Assembly: GCA_963820825.1 (NCBI GenBank)
Contig: CAWGBN010000008.1
Span: forward strand, 480,001-544,000
Source of the DNA: Vulcanimicrobiota bacterium
GTDB taxonomy: Bacteria > Vulcanimicrobiota > Vulcanimicrobiia > Vulcanimicrobiales > Vulcanimicrobiaceae
DNA length: 64,000 nucleotides
Direction: 5' to 3'
Below the pieces are notes generated by a model, which was not told the DNA's origin, searched no databases, and was given only the letters and a program-made list of their open reading frames with translations. Shown in pieces: positions 30,244 to 38,946 of the stretch (position 1 is its first letter; every line of letters starts with the position of its first letter). Both the position numbers and the translations under genes were made by a program.

Positions 30244-31248
30244 CTACCGCGTGGCGATACGCCCGATGCCCGAGGTCACCTCAGACGACGTGAACCACAT
30301 CGCGCGCCGCGGGCCGGAAGCGATCTGCAACCCGGCCGCCCCGCTCGGTACACGATAGAAATGGAGTCTGCCCGCGGTGGTGATGCGCCCGATCCCGAAG
30401 TCGCCCGTGAAATCGGTGAACCAGAGCGCGCCGTCAGGTCCCTTCGCGATCCCGGAAGGCTCGCCGTATTTCATCGTCGTCGGAAACTCCGTGTATTTAC
30501 CGGCGGTCGTAAGCCGCCCGATCGCGTTGGCATCCTCTTCGGTAAACCACAGCGCTTTATCCGGCCCCACGCAGATCCACGCCGGGCCCGAACCGACCGT
30601 AAACGTCTTTATCTTGCCTTTCGGAGTTAGACGGAACAACTTGTTGGCGAAATGGCTGCCGCCGGTGATGTTTTGCGTGACCCAGAGGTTTCCGTCGGAT
30701 CCGGTGACGATGCCGAAGAGTCCGGCATTCGCCGCCGCCACGGTAACGTGCGTGACCGTTCCGCTCGTGGTGATTCGGCCGACCGTGCCGTTCGATTCCG
30801 CGAACCATAGCGCGCCGTCGGGGCCGGTCGTGATTCCCTGCGGAAACGATCCGGACGGGTCGGTAAACAACGTCACCGTACCCGCGGTCGTGATGCGTCC
30901 GACGCCGTCGAAGGTCGTGAACCAGAGATTCTTGTCGGGCCCGACGGTAATTCCGGTGGAGACCTCGGTGCCGGCCGGCGCTTCGAGCGTATAGGTTCCC
31001 CCGGCGGTAATGCGGCCGATGACGTCCATGCCCGGGTCGGTAAACCAGAGCGCGCCGTCGGGCCCGGCGGTGATTCCGTCGGGGGTCGGATCGCCGTACG
31101 TGTCCGGAAAGAACTTAACGCTGCCGCGCTTGTCCGGAACGATCCGGCGCGCATCCGCGTACGAGAGGCCGCGCGGCACGGTGCCAACGCCCGGCGCCGC
31201 GCACGCCGCGACGATCAGAAGCAGTATTACGCTAAGGCTGGAGCGCAT
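30244..31248 (-). CDS. Vgb-like beta-propeller lipoprotein
   Basis: About seven GPDGALWFT/IGRIT repeats; lipobox VAAC; GAGGTG SD. Confidence 0.85.
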   Translation of the reverse strand: MRSSLSVILLLIVAACAAPGVGTVPRGLSYADARRIVPDKRGSVKFFPDTYGDPTPDGITAGPDGALWFTDPGMDVIGRITAGGTYTLEAPAGTEVSTGITVGPDKNLWFTTFDGVGRITTAGTVTLFTDPSGSFPQGITTGPDGALWFAESNGTVGRITTSGTVTHVTVAAANAGLFGIVTGSDGNLWVTQNITGGSHFANKLFRLTPKGKIKTFTVGSGPAWICVGPDKALWFTEEDANAIGRLTTAGKYTEFPTTMKYGEPSGIAKGPDGALWFTDFTGDFGIGRITTAGRLHFYRVPSGAAGLQIASGPRRAMWFTSSEVTSGIGRIATR

Positions 31249-32494
31249 GCCGAACACCTCGTTTCGTAGAATCGCCGTTCCTCGGAGTTACGCGCCGTGG
31301 CGACCGCGGCCGCAAAGTGTTCGCGCGCGGCCGCGCCGTTCCCGCGGCGCAGTTCGAGCTCGCCGCGCGCCGCGTGGTAGAACGGATACCGTCGAGCCGT
31401 TCGCGATCGCCGATTGCCTCGATCGCCTCGCAGGCCGCGCTGCGGGCCGTCGCAGTTGCGCGACCGCGATCGCGCGATTGAGCGCGACGATCGGCGAGGG
31501 CGCGATCGTGCATCAGCGTGTCGTAGAGCGAGACGATCTGCCGCCCAGTCGGTGGCCTCGAACGAAGGCGCGCGCGCGTGCACCGACGCGATCGCGGCTT
31601 CGACGTGATACCGGCTCACTGCCGTACCGGTTGCCGAACGTTCGAGCCATTCGACGGCCGCGCGATCATCGCGCGGTTCCAGCGCGAGCGATCTTGATCG
31701 AACAGCGAGCTGAGGTTCCCGGACGCGTCGAGGCGCGCCGGCAGGCGCGCCGCGTTGAGATACATCAGCGCGCACAGCGCGAGCGTCGACGGCGTGTCGC
31801 CGAGCGGATGCTCCGCGAGCAAGCGCGTGAGCCGAATCGCTTCGCGACAGAGGTCGCTGCGCACGACGGACTGCGCCGACGCACCGTGATAGCCTTCGCT
31901 GAAGATCAGATAGAGCGCGCGCTGCACGGCGGGCAAGCCGCTGCGCGAAATCGGCGGCGTCGGCAATATCGAAGAGCGCGCCCGATTCCGGCGAGCGTCT
32001 TCTTCGCGCGCGTCAGGCGCTTTTCGACGGCGGCGTGCGTGCTGACGAAGGCCGCGGCGATCTCGCGCACGCCGAAGCCGCCGACGAACTGCAGCACGAG
32101 CATCGATCTGCGCCGTTTCCGGCAAGCTGCGGATGGCAGCACGAGAACATCATCCGCAGCTGATCGTCGGGAATGCCGGTTGGATCGAAGATTTCTTCGA
32201 CGGCGTTGGCGATCGTCCACTCGGTTTGCAGCAGACGGCCGAGATCGGGCGCGAAGCGTGCGCGCGGTTCGCTCGCGGCGCAAGCACGTCGAGCGCGCGA
32301 TTCTTGGCCGTTTTCATCAGCCATGCCGACGGATTGTCGGGAACGCCGCGCAGCTTCCAGACCTCCAAAGCGCGGCAGAAGGCGTCTTGCACGACGTCTT
32401 CTGCCAGCGCGAGGTTGTGCAATCCGAACACGCGCGTAAGCGCGGCGACCATGCGCCCCGCCTCGTGGCGGAAGAGATGGTCGCTCGGCTCCAC
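31227..32494 (-). CDS. ECF sigma factor with C-terminal TPR extension (ECF42-like; several indels)
   Basis: AEDVVQDAF, PDNPSAWL, DDQLRMMFSCCHP, LYLIFSEGY, QDRSRW, EAAIASVH in different frames. Confidence 0.85.
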
Positions 32495-32495
32495 G

Positions 32496-32838
32496 TTACA
32501 TGTCCATCTTCATGATCGGCCGGACCTCGACGATCCCGCCCACGTTCGAGAATCGGACAGCCGCTGCGCGAGTTCCGCGGCGCGCGCTAGATTCTCGGCT
32601 TCGACGAGCGTGAAACCGCCGACGAGATCCTTCGCTTCGGCGAACGGGCCGTCGGTCACGGTGCCGCCTTGTCCCGTGACCACCTTGCCCTCGTCTTCGA
32701 GCGGCTGGCCGGGATCTTTCAGGTTGCCGCTGGCCGTGAGGTCCTTCATCCAGTTCAGCCACTTTTGCATGATCTGCTGGGACTCTTCGGCGTCGCGCCG
32801 CGCTGGCCGCCGCGGTAGAGATAGAGAAATTCCGCCAT
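32496..32838 (-). CDS. YciI/DGPF family protein (indels)
   Basis: MAEFLYLYRGG start with AAGGAGG SD; TDGPFAEAKDLVGGF; EVRPI. Confidence 0.88.
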
Positions 32839-32873
32839 GTCATTGCCTCCTTCAGGGTGTTTGATGCACCCTA

Positions 32874-32900
32874 GACGTTTGAGCGGGGCGCTTGCGGACA
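32874..32900 (-). promoter_or_regulatory. ECF42-type promoter TGTCCG-N17-CGTC
   Basis: Resembles the described ECF42 consensus (TGTCGA ... CG(A/T)C); same spacing as the site before the second YciI gene. Confidence 0.6.
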
Positions 32901-32958
32901 TTTTCGCGGCTGGATTTTGCGCGGAGGCGCCGGCCGAGCGCCGTCGCGATCGAACGGA

Positions 32959-33252
32959 CTACGTGCCCGAGCGGTGACGGTAGACGATACGACCCTTGGT
33001 TAGGTCGTAGGGCGACATCTCGAGATCGACGCGGTCGCCGGGAAGAATCCGAATGCGGTGGCGCCGCAGCCGACCCGCGACGTGTGCGAGCACGACGTGT
33101 CCGTTGTCGAGCTCGACCGAGAACGTGGCGCTCGGGAAGACTTGCTTGACGTTTCCCGCGACCTCGAGTGCGGGCTCCTTGAGGTCCTGGGTGGCGGCTC
33201 CGGCCTTGGGCGGGCGCGGGCCGGTTTTGAAGCGTCTATTGCGGCCTGGTAT
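32959..33252 (-). CDS. infA: Translation initiation factor IF-1 with N-terminal extension, non-canonical ATA start
   Basis: Translation ...[70 protein letters not shown] 9 nt upstream of ATA; absent from ORF track. Confidence 0.9.
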
Positions 33253-33420
33253 CGGAAGATACTCCTATCGGAAGCGCGGGATGAGACGTATCATACATCT
33301 CACAAAAGCGCGGACCGCGCAACCAACCGTGCTTAACAATTGGCACGCTGCGAGGAAAGTCTCAGGCGATCTCTCGCCTGCCTGCAACGCTCTCGCGCCT
33401 TTTTGCGTTATTACCTTCGT

Positions 33421-33762
33421 ATGGATTGTACGTTTTCGCCGGTTGCGGCGCTCGCTATCACGCAGTCAAACGGACGGGTCGCCTCTGAGACGTCAGAGCC
33501 GGTCTACGGCGGATACGCCAACCCGCGCGGCGAGATCTTTCTCTTTGCTAAGGACCTGGTCTACCGCGTCAACTTCAAGACGCACGTTCTCCAGCGCCGT
33601 CCGCCGCTCAACCCGGGCGCCCAAGCGCGTTACGACGCAACCGCGGCCGGCGAGCAGTTTGAGTACGGCAATCGAACCTTCCGCCGCCTGAGCCACGAAC
33701 AGATCGCCGAGATCTGCGAAGCGAATCGCTTCAAAGTGAGCGCCGGCTCACATTACTCCTAG
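33421..33762 (+). CDS. Hypothetical protein
   Basis: Fills the gap between infA and NiCoT with coding-like codon usage; no motif recognised. Confidence 0.45.
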   Translation: MDCTFSPVAALAITQSNGRVASETSEPVYGGYANPRGEIFLFAKDLVYRVNFKTHVLQRRPPLNPGAQARYDATAAGEQFEYGNRTFRRLSHEQIAEICEANRFKVSAGSHYS

Positions 33763-34755
33763 CTCATCGTAGCGAAGCAGTTTGTAGACCCCGACCGAGA
33801 CGAGCCAGCTCGCTAGGAAGAGTCCAACGATGACGAAGCCGAGCGCGCCGAAGTTTTCGTTCACCGCTCGGATCGCGTCCCACACGCCGCCGTTGAGCTG
33901 AAGCCGATCGGCAATTACGCTGGTCGCCTCGAGCATTCCGACGATCGCCGCAACGAGCACCGAGACCAGCGTAATCACCAGATTGTAGTAGAGCTTACGC
34001 ATCGGCTTGATGAAAGCCCAGCCGTAGGCGCCGACCATCACGATTCCGTCGGCGGTATCGATCAGCGACATTCCCGCGGTGAAGAGCAGCGGAAAGAGTA
34101 GGATCGCAAAGACCGGCAACCCTTTACCGGCTTCGACCGCAGCAATTCCGATCAACGCGACCTCGGTTGCGGTATCGAATCCCAGCCCGAAGAGCAGCCC
34201 CACCGGGTACATCTTCCAACTGCGGTCGACGAGTTTGAGCAACGGTCGAAAGCACCGGCCGAGCAGCCCGCGCCGATCGAGCATCGCGCCGAGGCTCGCC
34301 TCTTCGACCGATTCGCCTCGCCGCGCGCGAGCAAAGGCGGTGAAGATCTCGAGGAGCACGATGAGATTGATCGCGGCGACGATCAGCAAAAACGTCGCCG
34401 AGACCGACGTTCCAACCAGCGCTCCCGCGTGCGCGAGCGCGGGGAGCCGGCCTTTGACCAGCGCGGCGGCAACGGCGATTGCGAGCGAGAGCGCGACGAC
34501 CACCGTCGAGTGACCGAGCGAGAAGAAAAAGCCGACCCCGACGGGGCGGCGTCCCTCCTGCATGAGTTTGCGCGTGACGTTGTCGATCGCGCAGATATGG
34601 TCGGCGTCCACGGCGTGGCGCAATCCAAAGGTAAAGGCGAGCAGCGCCGTGCCCAGCAGGACCGGATGCGACCAAAAGGCGGCGAAGGCCAGCGCCCATG
34701 CGCCGATGTTGAGCGCAACCAGAACCGAGACGAGACTATAGATACGCGCGCGCAT
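33748..34755 (-). CDS. NiCoT (HoxN/NixA) nickel/cobalt permease, copy 1
   Basis: GLRHAVDADHI, FFSLGHSTVV, GLGFDTATE signature motifs. Confidence 0.95.
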   Translation of the reverse strand: MRARIYSLVSVLVALNIGAWALAFAAFWSHPVLLGTALLAFTFGLRHAVDADHICAIDNVTRKLMQEGRRPVGVGFFFSLGHSTVVVALSLAIAVAAALVKGRLPALAHAGALVGTSVSATFLLIVAAINLIVLLEIFTAFARARRGESVEEASLGAMLDRRGLLGRCFRPLLKLVDRSWKMYPVGLLFGLGFDTATEVALIGIAAVEAGKGLPVFAILLFPLLFTAGMSLIDTADGIVMVGAYGWAFIKPMRKLYYNLVITLVSVLVAAIVGMLEATSVIADRLQLNGGVWDAIRAVNENFGALGFVIVGLFLASWLVSVGVYKLLRYDELGVM

Positions 34756-36034
34756 CGTCGGCATAGAACGGATGGAATTGCGGGTCGGCGGCGAGTGCCG
34801 CACTTAGCCGTCGCCGAGCCTCGTCGCGCCGCCCGGCATGCCAGGCGACGATCCCGGCGTGATACTGAAGCTCGGGATCCTGCGTGCCGTAGCGGGTCGC
34901 GCGCTGCGAGTACCGGCGCGCCTCGCGCCAACGCCCCATCGCGGCGAGCACCCAGGCCATCGTATCGTCGGCATAGATTTCGTCGCCGCGCTTGGCGAGA
35001 TCGGAGCGTGCCGCGGCCAGCGCGGCGCTCAAGTGCTCCCGATGTTCGGCATAGTACATCGCGAGCAAACGATCGTTGACGCCTTGCGCGTTGAAGAGCC
35101 GCTGCTCGGCCGATATCAGCGCGTCGGTTCGCCGCGCGCCCGCTTCGTCGCCGAGCGCGCGCTGCGCGTCGGCTTCATATCCGAGCGCTTGCGGTAACGG
35201 GTAGAGCTCGGCGCTGCGCTTCGCCGCGGCCAGCGCCCGGGGCCAATCGCCATGCGCGCGGTAGAGTTTCGCTTCGAAGAGCAAGGCCTGTGCGTTGTCG
35301 GGAAAGAGCCGTAACGCTTCGCCGAACTCGCGCTCGGCCGCAGAAGCGTCGCCGGCTTCGAAGGCGAGCTGCGCCGCGCGGGTGTGATACCACGAACGCG
35401 TGTAGGCCGAGACCGCGATCAGGCGATCGATCAGCAGGGTAGCCTGCGCCATCGCGACGCGCGCGCCGGTTTGATTGCCGGTGAGCTCGTCGTAACGCGC
35501 CCGGATCGAGAGCCAAGTCGGATTGATCTCTTGCTGCACTGGGCGATCGAGAATTTGCCGCGCCTGCGAATAGTGGCCCAGCTCCATTAGGATCGAAGCC
35601 ATCTGCGCCCGGGAGCCGTCGTCGAAGGGTATCGCCGCGACGGCCTCGCGTTGCGCTTGCAACGCCTCGCCGAACCGGTGAAGGGCGAGGTCGGACGAAG
35701 CGACGACGCTAAGCGCCGCGGCGTTGCCCTGCGGCTGCAGGCGCAGCGACGCCGTCGCAACGGCGAGCGCGCGGTTGACGTCGTTGAAATCGCCCGTTTC
35801 ACGGAATCGCTGCAAGTACTCGGCGCCCAGCGTGCGCCGCGTGATCTGATCGTCGGCGTCGCGCCGCGCGAGCGCTTCGTAGAACGTGATGGTCGCGTTG
35901 CGCTGCCGATAATCCGTCGGAACCGGAGCAGTCGCCGGCGCACCGGCTTGCGCGCGATCGGCGCCGAGCCACGGCCACGCCGCCCCGACCGCGATTGCCG
36001 CCGCGATGGCGGCAATCGCACCAGACCGTCGCAT
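34736..36034 (-). CDS. Secreted/membrane-anchored TPR protein
   Basis: N-terminal hydrophobic segment, RETGD motif, repeated Ala-rich helical TPRs. Confidence 0.8.
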   Translation of the reverse strand: MRRSGAIAAIAAAIAVGAAWPWLGADRAQAGAPATAPVPTDYRQRNATITFYEALARRDADDQITRRTLGAEYLQRFRETGDFNDVNRALAVATASLRLQPQGNAAALSVVASSDLALHRFGEALQAQREAVAAIPFDDGSRAQMASILMELGHYSQARQILDRPVQQEINPTWLSIRARYDELTGNQTGARVAMAQATLLIDRLIAVSAYTRSWYHTRAAQLAFEAGDASAAEREFGEALRLFPDNAQALLFEAKLYRAHGDWPRALAAAKRSAELYPLPQALGYEADAQRALGDEAGARRTDALISAEQRLFNAQGVNDRLLAMYYAEHREHLSAALAAARSDLAKRGDEIYADDTMAWVLAAMGRWREARRYSQRATRYGTQDPELQYHAGIVAWHAGRRDEARRRLSAALAADPQFHPFYADDARAYL

Positions 36035-36037
36035 CGT

Positions 36038-36634
36038 TTAGAGCGGAGTCTGGATGTACGGGAACGTCTTCGTATTCGACTTATCGTACGCGACGTTATC
36101 CGTGGTGAGGCAAGGGGCTTCTTTGTGATCGTCGGGGATGAGACCGAGCGCCGAGAGCGTGTTACCGAAGATGGCGCCGAGCGAGATGTCGATGATATCG
36201 TCGTCGAGCGCACGTCCGCCGAACTTGCTGCCGGTTGCGCCGCCGGTTTCGTATCCGAGGTAGGCCGCCTTCGCCGTGTCCTGCGAGAGATCGGCCTTCA
36301 TCACGTTTGGATAGAGCACCGCTTGCAGCGTCTCCGCAGTCTGTTTGCTGCGGAACATCATCGCAAACGATTTGATCTGCCCTTGGAGCGCCGGATCCTG
36401 GTAGGGCTCGGAGCGGTTGGTCTTGTTGTGGTCTTCGAAGAGCTCGAAGGCCTCTTTGACCGCCGGTCGCGACAAGAGTTCGATCTGCTTGTACGCTACC
36501 GGCTTTCCGGTCGTCTCACCGGCCGGCGCTTGCAGACCCGCTGGAACCAGCGGCGCCGACCTCGAGCTGCAGCCTCCGGCAACCGCGCCGGCCAACGCGA
36601 GCGCGACGAGCCCGATGATATATCGTAGTTTCAT
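36038..36634 (-). CDS. DUF4331-like lipoprotein
   Basis: Lipobox AGGC; Y.QIE.L.RPA, GGRAL.DDIIDISL, DNV, FPY motifs. Confidence 0.75.
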   Translation of the reverse strand: MKLRYIIGLVALALAGAVAGGCSSRSAPLVPAGLQAPAGETTGKPVAYKQIELLSRPAVKEAFELFEDHNKTNRSEPYQDPALQGQIKSFAMMFRSKQTAETLQAVLYPNVMKADLSQDTAKAAYLGYETGGATGSKFGGRALDDDIIDISLGAIFGNTLSALGLIPDDHKEAPCLTTDNVAYDKSNTKTFPYIQTPL

Positions 36635-36646
36635 TGTTCGAATCTC

Positions 36647-37465
36647 CTATTCCGGACCGCCGTCGGGCGTGCCGGTGGTCGCCCACAGGGCGATTACTCC
36701 GGGCGTTCCGCTAGCCGGTGCGAGCAGTTTCTTCGGCATCTCGATGACGATCGAGATAACGTCGAAGGGTTCGAGATAGTCGTGCGGCTTCTTGATCGCG
36801 CAGCCGTTCGAGCCGGCGGTTCCGTAGTCGACGCCGTTGAGGATGAGCTTCTGTTTCGCCGAGGCGAAGCGGAACGAAGTCGCGGTCGCGGGCGGCGTAT
36901 GCGGATGGTTCATGTAGTTGCGATCGGGAACGATCTTGAAGAACTGCGCGAGATCGAAGTAGAACGGGTCGCGCCGCGGTCCGACGAAGACCTTGATGCC
37001 GTTCTTGAGCTTGGCGACCGAGCCGAAATCGAACGTTCCGGTCTTGGAAACGATCGTGTTCGTCGTTCCGACCTCGTTCGGCGCGGCCGGGCCGTAGAGC
37101 GTGACGTGCTGAGACGTTCCCGCCGAATCGGCGGCGAACTGAAAGACGGTATCCTCTTTGATCGAGTTCGAAGCGACGCCGCTCGTTGCGATCTTGAGTT
37201 GATAGAGCACGTTTGGATCGAGTGCGATCCCTCCGGTCATCCCTTGCGGAATGAGCGGACGTACGTCCATCGCCAGCGCGACACGCGACGCGTCGTGCGG
37301 ATCGGGAAAGGCATAGACGTCGGTGATGTCGGCGAGTGGGTTTTTGACGACCGTCGGCGAGTCTTGGTGGTCGGATCCTCGCGCCGCCTTAAACGAGTAG
37401 AGCGAGATCGAGAACGCGAGCAGAAAGACCGCCGCCATCGTCCCGATGGAACGAAGCAGTTTCAT
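36647..37465 (-). CDS. DUF4331 domain secreted protein
   Basis: Signal peptide then SDHQDSP, DITDVYAF, FVGPRRDPFYFD, WATT; ATGA overlap with upstream gene. Confidence 0.82.
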   Translation of the reverse strand: MKLLRSIGTMAAVFLLAFSISLYSFKAARGSDHQDSPTVVKNPLADITDVYAFPDPHDASRVALAMDVRPLIPQGMTGGIALDPNVLYQLKIATSGVASNSIKEDTVFQFAADSAGTSQHVTLYGPAAPNEVGTTNTIVSKTGTFDFGSVAKLKNGIKVFVGPRRDPFYFDLAQFFKIVPDRNYMNHPHTPPATATSFRFASAKQKLILNGVDYGTAGSNGCAIKKPHDYLEPFDVISIVIEMPKKLLAPASGTPGVIALWATTGTPDGGPE

Positions 37466-38946
37466 GTGGTCTCCTTGATGATCAGCGTGCGGTGCGCGGA
37501 CCGCGTGGTGAGGAAAACCGGGAAGACGGCTGCCGCCGCAACGGCGAACAGCACCGATACGACCGCAGCGAGCGGCGCGATCGACAGACCCTCGGCGCGC
37601 ACGCCTTGGGCGAGCATCACCGCGCCGACGATCGCGATGACGCCGCCGGTGAGAAAGGGCGCGACGCGCGCAACCCGCGCAAAGAGCGTCTGCCGACCGA
37701 GCCACGCCGCGCCGTGCACGACCGCGAGGCCGATCGCGCCGAGCACCGTCGCCAAGCCGAGACTGAAGACGACAATCAGCGCGAGTCCGTAGCCGACGCG
37801 ATGCAGGTGCAGCGCGGTGAGCAAGACGACGATCGCGGCCGGACAGGGGGCGATGCCGCCGCTCATCGCCGCGACGACCGCGCTGCGAAAGTGTAGCGGC
37901 TGCGAGCCCGGCAGTGCATGCGAGTGCGGGCGAGCGTGATGGTGACGGTGTTGATGGCGATGCGCGACGAGATGCCCCAACGCGCTCGAGAGCGCGCGCG
38001 CCGCGATGAAGGCAATGGCGGCGCCCGAGATCAGCGTGATCCACGTGAAGAGCCGCTCGGTCGCGAAACCGGCAGCGACGCAGAGCAGCAGGCCGATCAG
38101 AACGACCGCCGCCGTGTGCGCGACGGTAAGCGCGGCGGCGAGAATCAGCGCTTGCCTAAACGTCGCACGCGCACCGACGAGGGTGAAGGCCAAGAGCGCC
38201 TTACCATGTCCGGGCTCGAGTCCGTGCAGTGCTCCCAGCCCGAAGGCTGCAAGGATCGTGAAGACGATCCACCACGGCGTCTGCCCGTCGCGTGCGAGGA
38301 GATCGGAGAGCGCCGACGCTCGCACGATCGAGCTGGGGCCCCATCCGGAGTCGTCGCCCCCGCCGATGCGAGCGTGCGCGATTTTGCCATTGACGACGTT
38401 GAACGTCGCCGTATCGTTTTGGCGCGGCGAACCGACGAGCGCGTTTGGATAGGAGCGCAGCGCGTCGGTTGGATCGGTCGTGCCGGGCAGAACGACATCT
38501 TTCCAACCGATTCGCCGGTCGGCATAGACGGCGTCGCGAACGGCAACGGCTGCCGTCGGAGGCAACGGTGCGGTGTAATCGCCGGTCCAATAGAGAATCG
38601 GCAAGCCTCCCGCGCCCGGTCGCGTCTGCGCTGCCGTGCGCTCGAGATGAAGCGGCAGCGCAACGCCGTTTGCTTCAATCTCGAGTCCGCCGGCGACGAG
38701 TGCGCTCTCGCCGTTCGCCCAATCGCGCATTCGCGCCGGCGACCAGGTTCCGGCCGCATGCATGATTTGAAAGGTCGGAATCTCGGCGATATCGAGCACG
38801 TAGTGAATGCGGAGCTCCGTCGTCTTCGCATCGATGCGCGCGAGGTGATTGATCGTAAAGTTACCCAGAGGGTGGGCGGCGGCACTGCCGGCTCCCAGTA
38901 GCGACAAGCACACCGCCCACGAGATACACGCCGCAGCGCGCGTCAC
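37462..38946 (-). CDS. RcnA-like nickel/cobalt transporter with periplasmic N-terminal domain
   Basis: AHPLGNFTINH after signal peptide; HGLEPGHGK, TVAHT, His-rich loop, GIAPCPAA. Confidence 0.85.
   Translation of the reverse strand: MTRAAACISWAVCLSLLGAGSAAAHPLGNFTINHLARIDAKTTELRIHYVLDIAEIPTFQIMHAAGTWSPARMRDWANGESALVAGGLEIEANGVALPLHLERTAAQTRPGAGGLPILYWTGDYTAPLPPTAAVAVRDAVYADRRIGWKDVVLPGTTDPTDALRSYPNALVGSPRQNDTATFNVVNGKIAHARIGGGDDSGWGPSSIVRASALSDLLARDGQTPWWIVFTILAAFGLGALHGLEPGHGKALLAFTLVGARATFRQALILAAALTVAHTAAVVLIGLLLCVAAGFATERLFTWITLISGAAIAFIAARALSSALGHLVAHRHQHRHHHARPHSHALPGSQPLHFRSAVVAAMSGGIAPCPAAIVVLLTALHLHRVGYGLALIVVFSLGLATVLGAIGLAVVHGAAWLGRQTLFARVARVAPFLTGGVIAIVGAVMLAQGVRAEGLSIAPLAAVVSVLFAVAAAAVFPVFLTTRSAHRTLIIKETT

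Follow-up and report, generated by a model that had tools for sequence, protein, structure and literature searches.

A stand-alone infA clade with apparent AUA, AUC or AUU start codons in one family of Candidatus Eremiobacterota, and its possible control by start-codon proofreading

The window, i.e., the 64,000-nucleotide stretch of DNA analysed here, derives from a soil bacterium (genome G000) and carries on its reverse strand a short gene for translation initiation factor IF1, infA (Table 1). The open frame (33264-32959) is bounded upstream by TAG and its first ATG, GTG or TTG is a GTG at residue 54, within the fold, in agreement with the initial annotation, which had proposed an ATA start without a canonical alternative. 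The AGGAG that it placed 9 nt before the ATA is present at 33266-33262 and pairs with the 3' end of the genome's own 16S rRNA. The product scores 104.5 bits against TIGR00008 (cut-off 61.15; model positions 1-69/69), and PF01176 also matches the core, which aligns without gaps to IF-1 chains of the PDB, with the basic loop and the PYDL..GRI motif lining up. AlphaFold2, run with 59 sequences, predicts five strands and one helix for this core, mostly at pLDDT >80 (71-87 by block, residues 31-90), while the N-terminal 28-residue head lacks secondary structure and has low confidence (pLDDT 51-62); a single-sequence fold was uninformative (pLDDT 49). The claim of a complete IF-1 OB fold is thus borne out by both profile and predicted structure. 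Comparison with the two nearest orthologs, in G295 and G005, gives a pN of 0.000-0.019 at a pS of about 0.5. Judged from its sequence, the window gene is a bona fide, intact bacterial IF-1, and an exact look-up in a protein collection found no identical protein.

Table 1. Features in and around the window infA gene
Feature	Position	Strand	Evidence or remark
YciI-family gene and ECF sigma factor, frameshifted in assembly	about 31230-32843	-	whole in G005
infA (IF-1), stand-alone clade, 97 codons + stop	32959..33252	-	TIGR00008 above cut-off, pN/pS, OB-fold model
infA stop codon TAG	32959..32961	-	sequence
IF-1 OB-fold core	32962..33180	-	phmmer matches among IF-1 chains of the PDB (E 1.7e-24 to 1.8e-15)
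Arg/Lys/Pro-rich N-terminal extension, 24 codons, probably disordered, class-wide	33181..33252	-	substitution pattern, predicted fold
Inferred ATA start codon	33250..33252	-	conservation begins here; ATA/ATC/ATT in 108/123 clade copies
Shine-Dalgarno AGGAG, ATA 9 nt downstream	33262..33266	-	-6.8 kcal/mol for pairing to the 3' end of 16S rRNA from the same genome
In-frame TAG, five codons 5' of ATA, shuts frame to upstream starts	33265..33267	-	sequence
Possible -10 hexamer TATGAT, about 40 nt 5' of start (weak inference)	33290..33295	-	by eye; absent from consensus promoter scan
Divergent 113-aa protein	33421..33762	+	frequent neighbour of stand-alone infA in genus
Upstream cluster: HoxN/NixA nickel transporter, TPR protein, DUF4331 proteins, RcnA-like nickel/cobalt exporter	33748-38946	-	

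Three infA genes are present in G000: a copy between map and rpmJ with an ATG start, the window copy with ATA, and a third copy (C8:14981) with ATA behind a Shine-Dalgarno (SD) sequence. A second paralog had been suggested by the initial annotation; the search that it advised near secY-adk-map leads to the map-rpmJ copy, and both stand-alone copies start with ATA. A FastTree tree of 76 core residues separates operon copies (clade A, support 0.87) from stand-alone copies (clade B, support 0.87, including the divergent genus g34), on a short alignment in which deeper nodes are unreliable. The two clades also differ in their surroundings, since rpmJ lies within 700 nt of 27/30 clade A copies and of 0/123 clade B copies. 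The three best named relatives fall in Ca. Eremiobacterota, and the NCBI names of close proteins suggest Vulcanimicrobiaceae/Baltobacteraceae and probably Ca. Cybelea. Clade B is known from one family of Ca. Eremiobacterota, and searches of the two remaining families in the class gave no copy (tallies with or without the unpublished genomes G036 and G303). The nearest branch to clade B is an Acidobacteria-type IF1 (local support 0.85, 76 residues), which has an ATG start and lacks the N-terminal tail; an Acidobacteria-type donor was considered, and the support in the tree is too weak to name one. In genus g34 (L188, L267-L271), a far more divergent IF1 on a long branch is the only IF1 match, and it has ATT in 6/6 cases. 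In other families of the phylum (L274, L275, L307-L311), an additional IF1-like gene occurs that has diverged strongly and does not belong with clade B, and such second copies from five genomes of other families showed no combination of tail and ATA, ATC or ATT start (together ATH).

The window infA is flanked by a nickel transporter, a divergent ORF, YciI and an ECF sigma factor, i.e., by no ribosomal genes, and so lies outside any ribosomal operon, as had been stated from the first. The divergent ORF encodes a 113-aa protein without Pfam or NCBIfam match, for which ESM Atlas clusters at 0.92, with low recognition, offer a weak lead towards a hemopexin-like protein. It has 260 database matches and a homolog at 36 distinct infA loci; many copies lie at most 1.5 kb from a clade B infA and others do not. 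The protein is present in 22/24 same-genus genomes and 0/16 other-family genomes, and among the 41 searched it occurs only in the window's genus. Downstream of the second ATA copy (L002), a double treble-clef zinc-finger gene is followed by a fatty-acid desaturase gene (G000 C8:15234-16487), and the zinc-finger gene is found near 41/123 clade B copies.

Clade B appears to have displaced the operon gene in many members of the family. Among 59 family genomes that are at least 90% complete, 28 contain only clade B, 24 both clades and 6 only clade A, with 1 ambiguous, counted among the matches listed and classed from match counts and E-values, with 22 weaker matches beyond those listed. The operon infA is absent from 10/10 chosen B-only genomes, five of them single-contig, where only 3-213 nt separate map from the rpmJ downstream of it; 7/10 have an ATH start on their one IF1. 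In G006 (L255), a 142-nt decayed remnant of the operon infA is left between map and rpmJ, and the ATA copy is the only intact IF1 found. The one-contig genomes G293 (97% complete) and G083 each possess a single infA, starting with ATT and ATA, respectively, and lacking any in-frame canonical codon upstream. IF1 is essential in E. coli. Because of this essentiality and the empty operon slot, an ATH infA that is the sole copy must be translated, and gene content thus indicates for the clade that it can serve as the cell's only IF1. An ATH start is found in 21/25 sole-copy genomes versus 25/27 clade B copies from 21 two-clade genomes. It is retained with and without an operon copy and is therefore not merely a damper on a spare copy.

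Start codons were compared in 123 clade B copies (112 genomes, 58 genera) and 30 clade A copies (14 genera); the sample consists of the best matches and mainly one listed match per further genus, and leans to one genus (43 copies). Duplicate loci (L033, L038, L217-L220, L251), loci from unpublished genomes (L028, L043, L048) and truncated or frameshifted loci (L189-L191) were left out, and the named records L063-L065, starting with ATC, ATC and ATA, stand outside the counts. Start calls are computational: an automatic best-SD rule gives ATH in 106/123 copies, and manual assignment of 16 clade B and 3 clade A starts on the basis of the alignment brings this to 108/123. Clade B comprises 49 ATA, 40 ATC, 19 ATT, 5 ATG, 4 TTG, 1 GTG and 1 GTA starts with 4 ambiguous, while clade A has 25 ATG, 3 GTG and 2 TTG and no ATH (0/30). 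At least one ATH copy occurs in 48/58 clade B genera. Independent of any start call, an in-frame upstream stop combined with the absence of a canonical codon before the core is seen in 63/123 clade B copies (37 genera) versus 0/30 clade A copies. In other lineages, a canonical start no more than nine codons away from the core is seen in 77/77 infA genes.

The signals around the start point to the same codon. The median SD energy is -7.65 kcal/mol at clade B starts versus -1.1 at neighbouring codons, and 67/108 ATH copies, including the window copy, are SD-led by motif. Across 42 copies from the window's genus, the information profile is flat 5' of the SD, shows a purine peak there (-14 to -9) and is high from the ATH onward; conservation of start and SD in relatives was a check that the initial annotation had called for. 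ATA makes up 49/108 ATH starts (45%) versus 24/728 isoleucine codons in the same cores and 1310/27769 in G000 (3-5%). Parsimony on the short-gene tree, whose errors inflate both values, gives about 24 changes among ATA, ATC and ATT and about 6 away from them. The start site drifts freely among the three codons and mostly avoids ATG, though this is only one transition from ATA. The clade B core is under purifying selection (pN 0.07 vs pS 0.64, 861 pairs). A canonical start is used by ten clade B copies, which come from 7 genera and include four sole copies, and hence the ATH device is dispensable.

Further searches at the window copy returned no Rfam match (E <= 1, 32700-33800), no site in a sigma-70 scan of the upstream DNA, no special structure in a fold of the leader (z -0.73) and, in the 42 genus copies, no conservation upstream of the SD that would mark a conserved RNA leader. 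Two upstream ATGs, one at -46 and an in-frame one at -42 whose frame closes with the TAG, were considered as uORF starts and rejected for this copy, as the two nearest orthologs do not both share their positions and frames. The comparative evidence provides good support for the view that the window infA makes a working IF1, translated from AUA by the normal initiator tRNA with help from the SD.

The basic N-terminal extension of about 24 residues, to which the initial annotation had drawn attention, is real (24 codons) but not special to the gene, since ATG-start operon copies carry a median of 26 residues. The median tail has 23 residues with 6.3 K+R in clade B, and 8.5 K+R in clade A. All three families read within the class possess it, and the further families of the phylum that were seen lack it. 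The tail evolves as protein: over 49 close pairs, the three codon positions show 149/141/297 changes, at a pN/pS of 0.13/0.33. It is a lineage trait, unconnected to the start codon, and probably serves RNA binding.

A second gene of these cells shares the unusual start: infC, encoding IF3, begins with ATA, ATC or ATT in 25/25 genomes with a match. In several genomes of another family of the class (L295, L298, L299, L301), infC has ATT and no obvious SD. In contrast to these initiation-factor genes, 21/21 S10-spc operon genes of G000 recognised by their N-termini, secY not among them, start with ATG or GTG. Across 2049 coding-like ORFs of G000, the SD excess amounts to 132 for ATG, 47 for GTG and 27 for TTG (p < 1e-5) but to only about 4 each before ATA, ATC and ATT (p 0.14-0.34), a result that is compatible with ATH use of a few per cent. 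Start use relaxed throughout the lineage is not supported, given the lack of a genome-wide SD excess at ATH and the canonical starts of 21/21 operon genes. A first genome-wide ATH filter on G000 missed infC and the second ATA copy of infA and hence was not sensitive. Two further loci of G000 may deserve mention, a candidate ATT start with a strong SD just 3' of a stop (C6:425615, reverse strand) and a candidate ATC or CTG start (C6:372433, reverse strand) before a frame that we take to be TatC-like. The CAT initiator tRNA and the GAT isoleucine tRNA are ordinary in G000 (genome 85% complete), and a special initiator tRNA was discarded because the initiator has the usual features. A-to-I editing could turn ATA into an ATG-like codon; it was rejected as it cannot account for ATC and ATT starts. 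As far as tested, these controls confine the ATH habit to IF3 and clade B IF1.

In part of clade B, the AUA appears to be reached by another route. In 24/119 resolved copies, an ATG, GTG or TTG at -26, -23 or -29 opens a frame of 8-10 codons whose TAG overlaps the start. The position is exactly -26 in 20/27 SD-less ATA or GTA copies versus 1/23 SD-led copies, and a -10-like hexamer lies 4-9 nt before the uORF start in 19/24. The evidence lies in the fixed position and the promoter and not in the stop, because the TAG overlap follows automatically from ATA-G. In one of the 24 copies, L020, the uORF is apparently fortuitous, so that 23 genera remain. The uORF peptide is not conserved, and most SD-less ATA copies use a uORF. 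The leaderless uORF reads as translational coupling to the AUA, and such re-initiation may escape normal proofreading. An apparent GTA start overlapped by a 9-codon uORF is seen in L201 (G057), which G107 (L160) may resemble, although the latter is frameshifted.

To our knowledge, feedback through a factor's own start-codon proofreading is textbook knowledge for IF3 only, and a literature search that covered few subscription papers retrieved none describing a non-canonical start on a natural infA. According to two publications, IF3 represses its own infC mRNA, which starts with AUU or AUC (PMC5499595, PMC4705826). IF1 is described as raising the affinity of IF3 for the 30S subunit, and non-canonical initiation as sped up without IF1 (PMC5187519, for the latter citing its ref. 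28); a preprint portrays IF1 and IF3 as checkpoints (bioRxiv 10.64898/2026.06.26.734871). With moderate confidence, and by analogy, we propose that clade B infA is subject to infC-like feedback via IF1/IF3 proofreading. The gene stands outside map-infA-rpmJ-rpsM and its clade has replaced the operon copy in about half of the family genomes; free of operon control, it would carry a brake in its start codon. IF3, aided by IF1, would reject initiation complexes on AUA, AUC or AUU, so that little clade B IF1 would be made when the factors are plentiful relative to ribosomes, and more when proofreading is slack. Because infC in the same cells also starts with AUA, one signal could set both IF1 and IF3 and keep them in proportion. 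In genomes that retain the operon copy with its ATG, the supply from the latter would be fixed and the AUA copy would top it up. The loop may sense IF3 or overall proofreading and not IF1 alone; indeed, one review heads IF3 as a 'stand-alone' fidelity factor (PMC4705826), so it may be IF3 control of IF1 and not self-control. Moreover, an engineered AUA-infA mRNA is reported to compete as well as its AUG counterpart in extracts of E. coli from rich medium (PMC5499595), and AUA is therefore not always penalised. More tentatively, and with somewhat less assurance than for the feedback itself, IF1 and IF3 may share one start-codon circuit via AUH, in which clade B infA displaces the operon copy family-wide and AUA is wired in two ways, either through an SD or through re-initiation once a leaderless uORF of 9 codons with an overlapping stop has been read.

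A real ATH start could instead set a constant low yield of IF1, as in pcnB and ebpA, with no useful feedback. This is rather unlikely, although rare starts are reported to lower expression to 5-15% in several genes (PMC5499595, PMC4447247) and initiation factors to lie about 7-fold below ribosomal proteins (PMC6511841). For such a purpose a weaker SD or a TTG would do, whereas most copies combine a good SD with ATH; furthermore, ATH marks the genes of both proofreading factors but is no general habit of the genome, and it is about as frequent when the clade B copy is the only IF1.

IF1 is also an RNA chaperone, and the start codon could make the clade B copy cold-inducible or ppGpp-sensitive, supplying extra IF1 under stress. 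Genes within about 1.5 kb of the 123 copies are suggestive of this, namely those for zinc treble-clef proteins (41 loci, 21 genera), DEAD-box helicases (20 loci, 15 genera), fatty-acid desaturases (20 loci, 9 genera) and MsrA (9 loci, 9 genera), but the neighbourhood differs between copies, related genomes do not count as independent cases, and the window copy is flanked by none of the four. In E. coli in the cold, IF1 and IF3 are described as rising at least 3-fold with loss of IF3 auto-repression (PMC6511841), and the engineered AUA-infA mRNA is reported as strongly ppGpp-sensitive, AUA and AUU mRNAs being the most ppGpp-sensitive (PMC5499595). A sole IF1, however, must serve all growth, and a stress switch is judged improbable, slightly more so than a constant low yield; it overlaps with the feedback proposal, because both act through the same checkpoint.

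The proposed feedback resembles E. coli infC (PMC5499595, PMC4705826, PMC4447247) in that clade B infA encodes an initiation factor and has an AUH start behind an SD, the codon toggling between AUA, AUC and AUU. It differs from infC in that its product, IF1, is a helper in discrimination (a cooperative role in PMC5187519; IF3 alone in one review, PMC4705826), in that it is a second copy that coexists with or replaces a canonical operon copy, and in that one subclade has the overlapping leaderless uORF; autoregulation is known for infC and proposed for clade B infA. With canonical IF-1 (TIGR00008, PF01176; PDB 1AH9, 3I4O, 1HR0), clade B shares a full OB-fold core above cut-off, but it has a non-canonical start, a basic tail of 17-27 residues, a short C-terminal tail and clade-specific core changes, e.g., FPS and AGRLRRH. 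Unlike operon-type infA (map-infA-rpmJ-rpsM), none of its 123 copies has rpmJ within 700 nt. Start-context autoregulation of eukaryotic eIF1 and eIF5, as reviewed in PMC4705826, likewise involves a fidelity factor with a poor start signal of its own and a level responsive to stringency, although eIF1 is the functional counterpart of IF3 and the IF1 ortholog is eIF1A. The AUU starts of pcnB (E. coli) and ebpA (E. faecalis) are, by the account in PMC4447247, conserved rare starts that lower yield; their products take no part in proofreading, and a loop therefore cannot be closed there. How bacteria hold IF1, IF2 and IF3 near equimolar is called 'not obvious' (PMC6511841), and the share of IF1 in start-codon proofreading is presented as still debated (bioRxiv 10.64898/2026.06.26.734871). 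AUG and AUH infA side by side, sole-copy genomes, ATG reversions and the cultured member Vulcanimicrobium alpinum (PMC9758169) offer ready contrasts for both questions.

It is very improbable that the ATH is an internal isoleucine or unused codon and that the true start is a canonical codon elsewhere. In 60/123 copies a canonical codon is available in frame or the frame shows no upstream stop, 17 of the remaining 63 have a canonical codon within the first seven core residues, and public gene calls mostly use other starts. Yet the alternative starts lie at scattered positions, the earliest option in the window would fall inside the fold, the extension shows the substitution pattern of coding DNA, and upstream of the SD conservation ends. 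The starts of clade B infA are mostly misplaced in public annotation, most of 120 listed calls beginning at scattered wrong codons, although NCBI places the start at ATH in some single records such as P0008 and P0031.

The initial annotation had also warned of sequence errors just downstream, which was fair, because YciI and the ECF sigma factor are in pieces here through frameshifts and whole in G005. Public contigs match 33062-33210 and 33264-33414 without differences, and the ATA codon lies between these segments. Despite the adjoining frameshifts and the lack of the ATA codon itself from the matching contigs, an assembly error or a dead copy with a miscalled or mutated ATG is extremely improbable for the window copy, and refuted for the clade, given the purifying selection on the gene, the ATA, ATC and ATT at this site in independent genomes and the presence of clade B as the sole IF1 in the single-contig genomes G293, G083 and G064. 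An ATG at this position in close homologs had been named as the observation that would speak against the ATA; both nearest orthologs have ATA, and comparison across genomes confirms that the codon is not a sequencing error.
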